This document shows positions 10,201 through 13,114 of a stretch of DNA of 32,000 bases, in pieces. The notes below the pieces were generated by a model. It did no database searches. It was not told the DNA's origin and saw nothing but the letters and a program-made list of their open reading frames with translations. The position numbers were made by a program, and so were the translations under genes. How positions within the stretch are numbered: position 1 is the first letter of the stretch; every line of letters starts with the position of its first letter. The DNA comes from Alkanindiges illinoisensis DSM 15370 (GTDB taxonomy: Bacteria; Pseudomonadota; Gammaproteobacteria; Pseudomonadales; Moraxellaceae): positions 1,480,064-1,512,063 of the forward strand of contig NZ_JHUX01000003.1 of assembly GCF_000619845.1 (NCBI RefSeq), read 5' to 3'.

Positions 10201-13114
10201 AATGTGGCGCGCTGATGCTATATAAATTTGCATCATCATCCGGTGTATCCTGCTTACCCGTCCAGTAAAGTAGTATTTTTTCAACCAGTTGACGCTGCTG
10301 CATTGGCTCAGTAATGGCAAACTGCTCAACCAGTTCCTGAAGTTTACCTGTCGTATCATTGGCCATAGCAATATGGAGGGATGGCACGGTGCCATAGCCC
10401 ATGAGATTTGGTAGTGCCAAAATATCAAACGGCAGGTTTTCCTCAATGTTACTGGAGTCAACAAACACTGTCCTGGCTGTATCAACTTCAAACAACAGGG
10501 TTTCTGCTAGGCCAGTGGTAGAGGTTTCTACCCCATCCACGATACTTGTCTGCGTATAACTGCTTAAGTTAGTGTGAACTACCTTATTACTGTCAGTCAC
10601 ATTTTCTACAGTGGCATTAAGATTAATGGATTTAATCGATAAGTCAGCGAACGAATACAGTTCCGTCGACTGGGAAATACCATCTTGATTCGTGTCTTTC
10701 CATATCCTCAACTGACTAAAAACAGTGTCCTGATTATTGATGATATGATCCTGGTTGGCATCATATTGTGCCAGTGCAGCAAAACCATCAGCCGCTTTAT
10801 TGCCGTTGGCTAATTTGGTATCTGTGCCAAATAATTCAGAACCATTATCAATTTTGCCATTATTGTTTAAATCTAGGGTAACAAAGCCATCGCTTGCACT
10901 CACCCATGATGTATTTTCGGCAAAACCATTACCATCCAAGTCAAAATGCACCCCAGCACTGATAGGCTGGGTATTAATTTTGCCATCATGATCCAAATCC
11001 AGAATCAATGGGTCAGAAGGACGCGGTGGAATTGGGGGTATTCTTAATGGTGGTTTTTTGGGTGGCGGTGGTGCATCCCGGGTAACCACTACCCTAAACC
11101 GGATGCCCAGCTCGCCATTGTCCAGTGTCTCTGTGGTGAGTTGACCATAGGTAAAATCAATATTGCCGGAAACTTCATAGACCGCCTGAGTTGCCGATTG
11201 AGAGATTAATTGCAAAGGTCCATGGCTTAGAAGTTTATAAGGCCCGAAATCCAGTACCGGCGGGGGTGTCAGATTCTCATTTCTGTATTTAATGGTTTTG
11301 CCATTCAGTTGTTGTCCGTTATAGCTTAAAGTGCCCTTACCATCGCTATCATTAATGATAACCGTACCAGATGCCTGATAGGTATCAAAATCATCACCAC
11401 CCTTTAATAATCCTGAGCCAATCAGCGTGTCGTTACCTGCCTCACCATATAGCTCATCACTATCGCCAGTACCACCTTTTAAGATGTCATTGCCATCGCC
11501 ACCATACAGTTGGTCATTGCCTTCATCACCACTTAACAGGTCAATGTCTGCTGCACCATACAGCTTATCGTCGCCTTGGCCACCATAGAGAAAATTATTG
11601 TCTCTGTCGGTCTGATCATTTCTGACACTGCCGGCAAACAGCCAGTCATTACCGGCTGCACCATATAAAAAATCCCGGCCTTTACCGCCATATAAATAGT
11701 TTGCAGAAGTATCATCTACATCATTGCTTTTCGTACCCGCGTACAGAAAATCGTTACCATCGAAACCTTCAAGAACATCAGAATCTTGCCCGCCATAAAG
11801 ATAATCATTACCAGCTGCCCCATAGAGATGGTCATTACCATCATCTCCATTAAGATAATTTGTTGAAGTCTCTGTGGTATCGTCTTTTCTTATACCTGCA
11901 TATAATTTATCATCACCACTATCACCATGTAATATATCCTGATCTTTGCCGCCATAAAGCGTATCAGCTCCATAACCGCCATATAGGGTATCGTTGCCTT
12001 TGCCACCATGTAACGTATCACTACCTATGCCACCCTTGAGTGTGTCATTACCCCCTAGTCCAAAAAGGGTATCGTCGCCCAACCCAATCAGCAATCCCCC
12101 ATCAAGCGTATCATTGCTTCCGGTACCGTAAACTGTGTCATCCAGCACCCGTGATACTGCATCTTCAATAGTTCCTGCTGCTATATCAGCGAAATCGGTT
12201 AAGTAGTCAACAAACTCCTCAAAATTTCTTTCTGCCCAGGCAAAACCAGCTGGCTGTTGAGACTGTATCCATTCACTTTTTTGATAGACGCCAAATAGTA
12301 CTTTTAAGCCTACCCATTGGTCACTATTGGGTGCAAGTGCTGCAGCCAATAGTGGACTTTCCAACAACAGTGGAATAAGTGCAACCGGATTTAAACCATC
12401 CGAATAACCATAACTAAATGTCTTGATGGCACCAATCATGGCTGTACTAGTCGCTTCGCCACCAACATGAAATTTATCAATGGTACGTGCCATTGCAATG
12501 CTGGTCATTTTGACAAACTCATCGACTTTACCCGCATCAACAATAGTTTGTCCGATTTTTTTGGCCCCAGCACCATTAACCTCACCATCCTCAGTAATTT
12601 TGGTATCCCAAAAATAGAACGCACCCCCCCATTGACTAACACCTAATCCTGCGAAATCAATAGCAGCTTGAATGTCATGGCTTACTTGACTTTCTAAAGA
12701 CGGAATGATGCCTTTTGGCTTACCGCTTACATTCCCATTCTTGTCTAATCCAGCAATATCGTAATAGACGTTTTTGGCAATATGATTGCTTATATTTGCA
12801 ATATTTTCATTAGAGGAATTTAATTTTGCCAAATTCAGGCTTTCTATATTGATCTGCTGAATAAAATAGGCAGACTGGGTCGGTGTGACAGGACTTAAAA
12901 ATCGCTCTGGATGAGCCACATAGTTCAGATACCTATTAATATCCGCTGCCTGCTGAAACCAGTAGGCCTGATCAGGGTCATCAATGAGCATTTTTGAACC
13001 AAAGGTATTGTATATATAACTATACATACCTGCATAATCAGGATACTTCCCATTTGGAACTTTAACAAAACTATCAATTATAGCTAATTGGGTCACATCT
13101 ATTGAAATTGTCAT
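1268..13114 (-). CDS. Giant RTX-family secreted protein (3,948 aa), FrpC/ApxIVA-like architecture with a predicted self-processing module; probable T1SS-exported adhesin-type surface protein
   Basis: Single ORF of 11,847 nt with no interruption, and AGGA 6-9 nt upstream of the ATG at 13114. It carries dozens of GGxGxD nonapeptide repeats (HemolysinCabind type). Nine modules end in [10 protein letters not shown] (HCBP_related type). There is a [11 protein letters not shown] SPM-like segment, two cadherin-like Ig domains, and a C-terminal non-cleaved secretion-type region. A HlyB-type exporter gene follows immediately. Confidence 0.95.
   Translation of the reverse strand: [3948 protein letters not shown]
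1271..1648 (-). other. C-terminal region of the RTX protein (aa 3823-3948), presumed T1SS secretion signal region
   Basis: Sequence reads [99 protein letters not shown]...ANWK. This is a degenerate tenth HCBP-like unit plus an LVQAMA-type tail, as seen at the C-termini of many T1SS substrates. T1SS signals are C-terminal (established knowledge). Confidence 0.6.
1649..3382 (-). repeat. Six tandem ~270-bp (90-aa) coding repeats near the C-terminus of the RTX protein
   Basis: The motif ENxxEG(T/I)DxVxSSV recurs with its E at aa 3311, 3401, 3500, 3590, 3680 and 3770 (spacings 90, 99, 90, 90, 90). Each unit reads [89 protein letters not shown]. The DNA copies are visibly alike, for example 1831-2100 versus 2101-2370. 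Confidence 0.9.
3401..4024 (-). other. Two tandem cadherin-like / He_PIG-type Ig domains (aa 3031-3238)
   Basis: First domain: NHAPT...[27 protein letters not shown]...[19 protein letters not shown]...FTLKV. Second domain: [68 protein letters not shown]...FKLTF. Both carry the FSYxIPxxxFxDxDGDxLTYSA...[18 protein letters not shown] signature of dystroglycan-type cadherin-like domains. Confidence 0.75.
4025..9664 (-). repeat. Array of nine [RTX nonapeptide block + HCBP_related-type domain] modules (aa 1151-3030)
   Basis: The module core is GNDTYxFGRGxGQDxIxxYD...[60 protein letters not shown]. The G(T/S/V)(I/V)W motif begins at aa 1321, 1503, 1665, 1826, 1973, 2173, 2445, 2609 and 3013. Variable-length GGxGxD runs separate the modules. 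FrpC/FrpA of Neisseria use the same module type, as I recall their sequences. Confidence 0.85.
9665..10459 (-). other. Non-repeat region following the SPM (aa 886-1150), function unknown
   Basis: Sequence reads [61 protein letters not shown]...[21 protein letters not shown] and has no GGxGxD repeats. FrpC, as I remember it, has an equivalent post-SPM segment (LLDNLIHKWAETD-type). Confidence 0.5.
10460..11014 (-). other. Predicted Ca-dependent self-processing module (SPM), aa 701-885, with candidate scissile Asp701-Pro702
   Basis: D701 is gac at 11014-11012 and P702 is cca at 11011-11009 on the minus strand. The segment reads [132 protein letters not shown]. It matches the FrpC SPM as I recall it: D414[13 protein letters not shown]...[37 protein letters not shown]...[56 protein letters not shown]. 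Confidence 0.7.
11015..11074 (-). other. Proline-rich linker [20 protein letters not shown] (aa 681-700) immediately before the Asp-Pro site
   Basis: Read directly from the translation. Eleven of the 20 residues are Pro. Confidence 0.9.
11390..12124 (-). other. First RTX nonapeptide block (aa 331-575)
   Basis: Sequence reads [45 protein letters not shown]... with several irregular insertions such as [18 protein letters not shown] and [18 protein letters not shown]. Confidence 0.85.
12125..13114 (-). other. N-terminal ~330-aa non-RTX domain of unknown function
   Basis: aa 1-330 read [39 protein letters not shown]...[26 protein letters not shown]...[42 protein letters not shown]. There are no Gly-Asp repeats, no signal peptide and no family motif I recognise. 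Confidence 0.6.

Follow-up and report, generated by a model that had tools for sequence, protein, structure and literature searches.

A giant RTX protein of Alkanindiges illinoisensis carries a FrpC-like self-processing module from a proline-led subfamily that is predicted to cleave

In the 32,000-nucleotide stretch of the genome of the soil bacterium Alkanindiges illinoisensis DSM 15370 analyzed here (contig NZ_JHUX01000003.1, positions 1,480,064 to 1,512,063; hereafter, the window), a gene on the minus strand encodes a 3948-residue RTX protein with an internal domain homologous to the Neisseria meningitidis FrpC self-processing module (SPM). We consider it probable that positions 10463-11014 (minus strand) encode a Ca2+-triggered "clip-and-link" SPM of the FrpC/ApxIVA type, that this module represents a distinct subfamily with threonine at both positions where FrpC has a bond-flanking aspartate, and that the proline-rich leader preceding the bond is part of the module. 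To our knowledge, SPMs are the sole protein modules in which calcium prompts the formation of a reactive aspartic anhydride, and all that is known to us of their mechanism was learned from FrpC and a few of its near relatives. They serve in tag-free purification and in the covalent targeting of native proteins (NeissLock).

The original prediction, made from the DNA sequence, had proposed an autocatalytic Asp701-Pro702 cleavage site behind a polyproline tract at 10460-11074. This segment encodes residues 681-885 on the minus strand, and every peptide quoted in support of the proposal is present in the translation. A plus-strand reading of the same segment was rejected, as its frames are riddled with stops.

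Homology and fold of the module

Sequence and structural model together make the domain a clear homolog of the FrpC SPM. A phmmer comparison with all PDB chains returned the two FrpC SPM structures, 6SJX (E value 4.4e-35) and 6SJW (5.7e-35), and no others. The alignment spans residues 700-857 of the window protein and 414-574 of FrpC, the two SPMs being ~43% identical, and it sets Asp701-Pro702 exactly on Asp414-Pro415; both the homology and the predicted site named in the original prediction are supported. The FrpC sequence blocks given there agree with 6SJW and 6SJX apart from one residue, as FrpC reads AFQSLRVW and not AFQTLRVW.

An AlphaFold2 model of residues 691-900, with 39 homologs in the input, has a predicted local distance difference test score (pLDDT) of 92.9 and a predicted template modeling score of 0.87. 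The structural comparison with the FrpC SPM that had been suggested was made with Foldseek against the PDB: the model matches 6SJW (E value 2.5e-16, template modeling [TM] score 0.85) and 6SJX (2.9e-15, TM score 0.82) exclusively, and the next match has an E value of 0.2. The SPM fold, two perpendicular β-sheets with a helix-turn-helix, was called novel when it was described (Kuban 2020, PMC7078468). Scanned against local Pfam and NCBIfam libraries, neither of which includes an SPM model, the SPM gave solely sub-threshold EF-hand_1 and XopAW matches; the precomputed Pfam accession PF26745 is present on 120/120 of the homologs listed.

Cleavage site and calcium-binding sites

Residue roles were taken from Kuban 2020 (PMC7078468), the C-terminal FrpC sequence was checked from the PDB, and positions were mapped by MAFFT and hidden Markov model (HMM) alignment. 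The parts of the module are as follows.

11015..11074, minus strand: proline-rich leader, residues 681-700, with Ser700 at position -1
11027..11038, minus strand: P693-P694-I695-P696 within the leader, with the invariant PxxP pair at Pro693 (-8) and Pro696 (-5)
11009..11014, minus strand: predicted scissile bond Asp701-Pro702, aligned on FrpC Asp414-Pro415
10463..11011, minus strand: SPM, residues 702-884, supported by phmmer, AlphaFold2, and Foldseek
10982..10999, minus strand: Ca2+ site 1, D706-L-D708-H-D710-G711 (FrpC D419/D421/D423/G424)
10889-10891, minus strand: D742, completing Ca2+ site 1 (FrpC D456)
10835..10873, minus strand: Ca2+ site 2, D748-E760 (FrpC D462-E474)
10727..10762, minus strand: Ca2+ site 3, D785-D796 (FrpC D499-D510/511 loop)
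10661..10696, minus strand: Ca2+ site 4, D807-E818 (FrpC D521-E532)
10904-10906 and 10700-10702, minus strand: W737 and W805, the Trp pair flanking site 4 (FrpC W451/W519)
10820..10834, minus strand: L761-F-G763-T764-D765; L475 and G477 of FrpC are kept, Asp478 becomes Thr764, and Asp765 is adjacent
10490..10504, minus strand: E871-T872-L-L-F875, the C-terminal strand under the scissile bond; FrpC Asp579 becomes Thr872

Ligand positions at all four EF-hand-like Ca2+ sites are identical to those of FrpC or conservatively replaced, and the DxDxDG-type loops to which the original prediction drew attention coincide with the four Ca2+ sites of Kuban 2020 (PMC7078468). The equivalents of W451 and W519, a T-shaped pair in FrpC, are both Trp in every Asp-Pro domain listed, as far as residue identity goes. 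The window protein thus shares with FrpC (6SJW, 6SJX; Osicka 2004, Kuban 2020) the fold, the place of the Asp-Pro bond, the four Ca2+ sites, Trp451/Trp519, and the port residues L475, G477, and G491. It differs in having Thr764 and Thr872, a last β-hairpin that is ~7 residues longer, and the 20-residue proline leader.

The equivalent of Asp579 could conceivably be Glu871, shifted by one residue. We gave up this candidate as the main reading because Thr872 takes that place, with high posterior, in the HMM alignment and because position 578 varies (E/N/Q/H) across the related sequences described below, while Thr at 579 is invariant.

The leader marks an SPM subfamily

Eleven of the 20 leader residues are Pro, against 1.8% (72/3948) in the whole protein, and the most Pro-rich 20-residue segments of the protein are those of this tract; a binomial estimate puts its chance expectation at ~1e-14 per segment. 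The Pro codons are mixed (CCA/CCG/CCC/CCT), and therefore the tract is not a simple DNA repeat. Within the literature library searched, no paper pairs "self-processing module" with "proline-rich."

Two earlier samples had made the tract seem rare: it was present in ~4 of ~95 fragments from a word-indexed search and in 2 of ~45 distinct loci from GTDB species-representative genomes, a set that excludes the window's own genome and in which the best locus has 60% identity. This view was overturned by an exhaustive HMMER search, which yielded 15,951 representative clusters at an E value of ≤1e-10. We compared the Asp-Pro domains of the 150 nearest relatives, defining a leader as at least 6 Pro within 25 residues, and found the leader to be typical of the subfamily to which the window SPM belongs. 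On the sequences compared, the Pro tract is not unique to the Alkanindiges protein but marks a subfamily of SPMs, ~20 members of which have equivalent tracts.

The register of the tract is fixed. Pro occupies both -8 and -5 relative to the scissile Asp in 17/17 subfamily sequences, -9 in 14/17, and -13 in 13/17, and position -1 in this sample is S, A, R, or Y and never Pro. Two Pro residues spaced i/i+3 lie on one face of a polyproline-II helix. In Acinetobacter piscicola, the source of the closest ortholog and of one of the two leader-bearing loci in the GTDB sample, the leader reads AEPPPPIYPKPQPPLTPPPTPPTKY-DP, and the FGTDT and GLAETLLF motifs are kept. Relatives of the FrpC-like kind (e.g., P0030 from Kingella, and P0065) have no leader, in keeping with the original prediction, in which FrpC is not known to have such a tract. 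ApxIVA of Actinobacillus pleuropneumoniae and its Pasteurellaceae relatives share with the window protein a large RTX protein, an internal SPM, and the Asp-Pro junction; the Pasteurellaceae SPM loci that we found read ...P[VI]-DPL[IV]LDLNGDG and, in contrast to the window protein, have other cargo and no Pro leader (0-3 Pro in 25 residues).

The leader goes together with changes inside the SPM. Among the nearest Asp-Pro domains, leader and Thr579 are distributed 16/4/0/45 (Fisher 7e-12, uncorrected for phylogeny), and leader and G-T-[D/E] at 477-479 are distributed 13/7/1/44, the motif being present in 13/20 leader-bearing domains versus 1/45 (likewise uncorrected). Thr is found at 579 in 19/19 subfamily sequences and in 0/50 other Asp-Pro domains. 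Further subfamily-specific positions are, in FrpC numbering, 450, 559, 561, and 579-582, that is, S736, V845, H847, and T872-L-L-F, and they cluster around the FrpC cleavage port. Where the N-terminal cargos are unrelated, the leader is still found with the SPM. The subfamily ranges over Moraxellaceae (Acinetobacter, Psychrobacter, Alkanindiges), Peristeroidobacter, and metagenomes; its named members, from Acinetobacter thutiue, Acinetobacter sp. YK3, Psychrobacter sp., and Peristeroidobacter agariperforans, are all annotated "calcium-binding protein." By these sequence features, the window SPM is a member of a distinct subfamily, with a PxxP leader and with Thr764 and Thr872 for Asp478 and Asp579.

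Does the module cleave?

Several points weigh against a cleaving, leader-assisted module. Asp478 and Asp579 of FrpC, which flank the scissile bond and were modeled as holding a transient fifth Ca2+ (PMC7078468), are replaced by Thr764 and Thr872 in the MAFFT alignment and, with high posterior, in the HMM alignment. Cleavage of FrpC is lost with D579A and strongly impaired with D478A (PMC7078468). The SPMs shown to cleave (FrpC, FrpA, ApxIVA, Alysiella, and Kingella negevensis) have Asp478/Asp579 or are close to the FrpC type, and one relative (P0001) has Ala at 579. The co-varying sequences are essentially one clade, and thus the Fisher p value overstates their independence. The part of the leader that was modeled, residues 691-700, has a mean pLDDT of 73, which is of moderate confidence. 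Finally, the 32-kb window holds no type I secretion system (T1SS) genes, so that secretion of the protein is something we infer; the frpC and apxIVA loci likewise have no linked T1SS genes (PMC3034196).

The two threonines bring up the possibility that the module is a degenerate SPM, which folds on Ca2+ without cleaving and serves as a structural or spacer domain with the Asp-Pro bond as a relic. The two alanine mutants of FrpC speak for it, as do the many Ser-Pro, Thr-Pro, and Ala-Pro junction variants in the wider family; these have no capacity for an Asp anhydride, which makes non-cleaving or differently cleaving relatives plausible. On the other hand, the D579N mutant of FrpC retains full activity and cleavage persists in the D478N/D579N double mutant (PMC7078468), which argues that the carboxylates are structural rather than catalytic. 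Thr is able to hydrogen-bond or to ligate Ca2+, an acidic residue is conserved at 479, and position -1 avoids Pro, Gly, and Asp. The junction Asp is kept in 18/18 Thr579 domains, although the residue at this place changes readily in other parts of the family (in the wider set of 188, D 108, S 53, and T 9). We therefore regard a degenerate module as unlikely.

Both positions are also variable in general: 478 is N in 31, D in 30, S in 6, T in 5, and E in 5 members of the wider family, and 579 is D in 43, T in 18, A in 9, E in 9, and N in 8 Asp-Pro domains. Because of this variability, we read Thr/Thr as a difference of subtype and not as a ground for exclusion. A loss of residues needed for SPM activity had been named in the original prediction as one finding that would speak against it; here the outcome is divided, as Asp478 and Asp579 are indeed Thr, while the Ca2+ sites, the Trp pair, the Asp-Pro bond, and three port residues are kept. 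By analogy with FrpC, cleavage in the leader-bearing subfamily is likely, if unproven, since no SPM of this subfamily has been characterized.

What the leader may do

One account of the leader is that of a passive linker defined by composition alone, a rigid stalk or spacer as in the original prediction, with no specific contact to the SPM and no catalytic role. The sequence of the tract is highly variable beyond its Pro content, a simple glycine-serine (GS) spacer suffices to accelerate FrpC SPM fusions (PMC7846742), and the AlphaFold2 model, at moderate confidence, shows no secondary structure in residues 691-700. A pure spacer would, however, have no need of a fixed register, and -8 and -5 are Pro throughout (17/17). 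Port substitutions at 450, 478/479, 559, 561, and 579-582 also go with the tract, which accompanies the SPM even where the cargo is unrelated. A purely passive linker is possible, but we doubt it; this judgment concerns the tract only.

PxxP with i/i+3 spacing is also the classic pattern of a polyproline-II ligand. The tract could accordingly be read as a motif for an external partner, such as an SH3-, WW-, or profilin-type domain from a eukaryotic host or a receptor on a bacterial surface. Its RIPPIPP and PPIPPR segments suit the SH3 consensus of class I and class II, and R691-x-x-P694-x-x-P697 and P693-x-x-P696-x-R698 are seen in the sequence. The Arg/Lys flanks that define the SH3 classes are not conserved in the relatives, however, the organisms are environmental Moraxellaceae and Peristeroidobacter, and the co-variation is with residues inside the SPM. 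We consider this account very improbable.

The original prediction saw in the tract a rigid, free stalk. That picture is not the one to which the comparison points: the invariant Pro(-8)/Pro(-5) pair, the co-variation with the port, and the persistence of the tract across cargos suggest that the leader is a functional part of the module. That the Pro register is fixed and that the tract co-varies with residues of the port suggests more than a spacer, and a role in positioning the scissile bond is plausible because both fifth-site Asp residues are gone. One specific form of this idea is that the Pro(-8)/Pro(-5) face docks on the remodeled port (S736, V845, H847, T872-L-L/W-F) and, by clamping and twisting Asp-Pro, replaces the fifth Ca2+ in part or wholly; we put it forward as a speculation that has the odds against it.

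Experience with engineered SPM fusions offers a parallel. Cleavage by the FrpC SPM is blocked when position -1 is Pro, Gly, or Asp; a folded cargo attached directly slows cleavage, which a short spacer cures; a spacer between folded cargo and SPM raises both cleavage and conjugation; and in a competing "own goal" reaction, the anhydride reacts with the cargo's own amines (all PMC7846742). Ser700 at -1 is permissive by this rule, and by analogy the natural leader would agree with all three NeissLock rules: spacing, the -1 residue, and an anhydride kept off the cargo. NeissLock/SPM fusion tags (Scheu 2021; Lim 2025) share with the window protein a spacer after the cargo, a -1 residue other than Pro, Gly, or Asp, and an anhydride held away from cargo lysines; the tags have short, flexible spacers (GS-Y), whereas the natural leader is long, proline-rigid, and in a fixed PxxP register.

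Proposed mechanism

In the mechanism that we favor, a T1SS whose genes lie elsewhere would export the RTX protein in unfolded form out of the low-Ca2+ cytosol, as expected from RTX biology. External Ca2+ would then fill the four EF-hand-like sites, the conservation of which is seen in the alignment, and fold the RTX blocks and the SPM. If the homology with FrpC holds, folding would strain Asp701-Pro702, the Asp side chain would attack its own carbonyl, and the chain would break. The resulting fragment of 701 residues, ~75 kDa, would carry a C-terminal anhydride, which would either be hydrolyzed or form an isopeptide bond with a nearby lysine. As a polyproline-II helix, the leader may keep the bulky, Ca2+-folding cargo off the cleavage port and would probably contribute to positioning the scissile bond or putting it under strain; once the chain is cut, it would form a stiff arm of ~6 nm (estimated at 3.1 Å per residue) bearing the anhydride.

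Architecture of the RTX protein and its locus

The 3948-residue protein is an exact match to UPI00047B354D, and WP_211253596.1 represents its cluster at 90%. Pfam models match it as HemolysinCabind (54 stretches), HCBP_related (9), He_PIG (2), and BapA_N. Its parts outside the module are as follows.

1268..13114, minus strand: RTX protein gene, an open reading frame (ORF) for 3948 residues with no Cys; annotated merely "calcium-binding protein"
12110..13114, minus strand: N-terminal cargo domain, residues 1-335, with no Pfam, NCBIfam, or PDB sequence match
11375..12085, minus strand: RTX nonapeptide block N-terminal to the SPM, residues 344-580, with 19 GGxGxD-type motifs
11075..11347, minus strand: pre-SPM β-rich domain, residues 590-680, conserved in A. 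piscicola
9545..10462, minus strand: post-SPM conserved region, residues 885-1190, with tblastn matches in SPM loci of several phyla
4067..9556, minus strand: nine RTX plus HCBP_related modules (FrpC-type repeats), residues 1187-3016
1271..4027, minus strand: two He_PIG immunoglobulin-like domains, then C-terminal RTX repeats and tail

Five homologs of residues 1-335 were found, in addition to P0218 at 46% identity. The head has been exchanged relative to the closest ortholog: the A. piscicola protein (L001) has no counterpart of residues 1-335, and it keeps the pre-SPM domain, the leader, the SPM, and the post-SPM region. A head-domain exchange has reportedly been described for FrpA versus FrpC as well. 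Blocks homologous to residues 344-580 are present in P0218, P0225, P0230, P0236, and P0237; as this RTX block is N-terminal to the SPM, the clipped fragment itself would bind Ca2+. In the same five proteins, the domain of residues 590-680 is 38-75% identical; it is confined to the Moraxellaceae group, and other leader-bearing SPM proteins are without it.

Downstream of the SPM, the window protein has in common with FrpC a conserved post-SPM region followed by HCBP_related/RTX modules, and FrpC residues past 591 speed up cleavage (PMC7846742). Common to both loci are also the absence of adjacent T1SS genes and a small lipoprotein gene just upstream; the window protein is, by contrast, twice as long, carries an RTX block ahead of the SPM, and belongs to an environmental bacterium. 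ApxIVA, too, has an accessory ORF upstream and unlinked T1SS genes (PMC3034196). The last 310 residues of the window protein match RTX and serralysin models, and by analogy with other RTX proteins (PMC3034196) the C-terminal tail is presumed to be a type I secretion signal.

The locus looks like a genomic island, being marked as such by three features. A tyrosine integrase gene (14512-15774, minus strand) and a RelB/ParE-type toxin-antitoxin pair (16109-16637, plus strand) lie near the lipoprotein gene, and the GC content is 0.37-0.44 over ~4-18 kb of the window versus 0.46-0.49 in the flanks. No tRNA was found in the window, including beside the integrase gene, and no terminator was found downstream of the RTX gene.

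The upstream lipoprotein and a possible effector-immunity pair

Immediately upstream of the RTX gene lies a gene for a small predicted lipoprotein.

13148..13930, minus strand: predicted lipoprotein, 260 residues, lipobox LLGGC, 34 bp upstream of the RTX gene

The NCBI annotation gives a shorter form of 239 residues that is without the signal peptide. Its AlphaFold2 model (pLDDT 86) has Smlt3025 (6PDK) as its top Foldseek match (E value 9e-4, TM score 0.39-0.41), with FrpD (5EDF) at rank 5 (E value 0.025, TM score 0.31-0.35) and EagT6 also among the top five, which is weak to moderate evidence. A sequence comparison of the lipoprotein with the PDB gave no FrpD match and noise alone. Its family comprises 85 homologs, mostly from Moraxellaceae, and has no Pfam model. 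The gene is linked to a homolog of the N-terminal domain again in one further locus (L065) and, to judge from a shared length of the longest listed contig (5181 bp), probably in the case of P0134 and P0129. Members of the family are also found with no RTX neighbor, as in the three tandem paralogs of Psychrobacter fjordensis.

Smlt3025, an immunity protein of a type IV secretion system, has FrpD topology, and FrpC/FrpD has been proposed as a possible effector-immunity pair (Bayer-Santos 2019, PMC6759196). The FrpD-FrpC and Smlt3025-Smlt3024 pairs, in which a lipoprotein or immunity protein goes with an effector of the RTX N-terminal-domain type, resemble the window locus in having the lipoprotein gene immediately upstream of the RTX gene; they differ from it in that the window lipoprotein has low TM scores to FrpD and Smlt3025 (0.31-0.41) and no sequence similarity to them, and that the N-terminal domain has no detectable similarity to Smlt3024-type domains. 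For the latter comparison, Smlt3024 and four RTX N-terminal domains were rebuilt from the supplement of PMC6759196 for profile comparison; phmmer found nothing and hhalign gave a probability of 0.3%, and residues 1-335 were rejected as a Smlt3024-type domain. By analogy, an immunity function is conceivable for the upstream lipoprotein and an antibacterial effector function for the clipped fragment, but because the N-terminal domain is unlike Smlt3024-type domains, this idea is a lead and not a conclusion.

SPM-like domains in the wider family

About one-third of the SPM-like domains have a Ser-Pro or Thr-Pro junction (S 53 and T 9 of 188; homologs P0002-P0120). Asp579 is present in 59/62 of these, which usually read G-N at 477-478 and D-V-W-F at 579-582. 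Domains with such junctions cannot form an Asp anhydride. Many giant proteins (3000-7700 residues) among P0219-P0364 have 2-4 SPM-like stretches, often near the C terminus, with Ala-Pro or Pro-Pro at the junction (e.g., APIVFDLDGDG), which indicates that the SPM fold has been widely reused without the Asp-Pro bond.

SPM-like modules also occur C-terminal to varied heads (P0003, P0012, P0014, P0033, P0034, P0086), including Peptidase_M23, Lipase_3/Mbeg1-like, phage-tail lysozyme/SLT, Ntox44, DUF6973, and ALTTAQ repeats. This variety resembles that of polymorphic toxins with exchangeable effector heads. In an Arcobacteraceae metagenome-assembled genome (CBDETN010000024.1; L017-L021), more than 25 small genes in tandem, with a few larger RTX genes interspersed, each have a variable N-terminal part of ~180-360 residues followed by a DPLALDLNHNGKID-type SPM and form an array of SPM cassettes. 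SPM homologs with GxGxD repeats are present in Firmicutes, too (L002, L004, L005, L011, L015, L054), in Coprococcus, Eubacterium, Lachnospiraceae, Ruminococcus flavefaciens 007c, and Clostridium.

Implications

The comparison identifies a natural subfamily of SPMs in which the Asp-Pro bond and the four Ca2+ sites are kept, both bond-flanking Asp residues are replaced, and a leader in fixed register is added. If members of this subfamily cleave, the fifth Ca2+ site could be done without or substituted, a point of direct relevance to the twisted-amide mechanism put forward for FrpC, and the subfamily would be a source of new parts that bring a rigid arm of their own and possibly other kinetics. 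Should the docking mechanism be true, the leader would serve these modules, as a second self-cleaving class, in the role of an intrinsic "strain lever"; their Ca2+ threshold and kinetics might be different, and they could be of use for NeissLock-type tools. For A. illinoisensis itself, the prediction by analogy with FrpC is that a ~75-kDa N-terminal fragment of the 3948-residue exoprotein would be released and could attach covalently to its targets.

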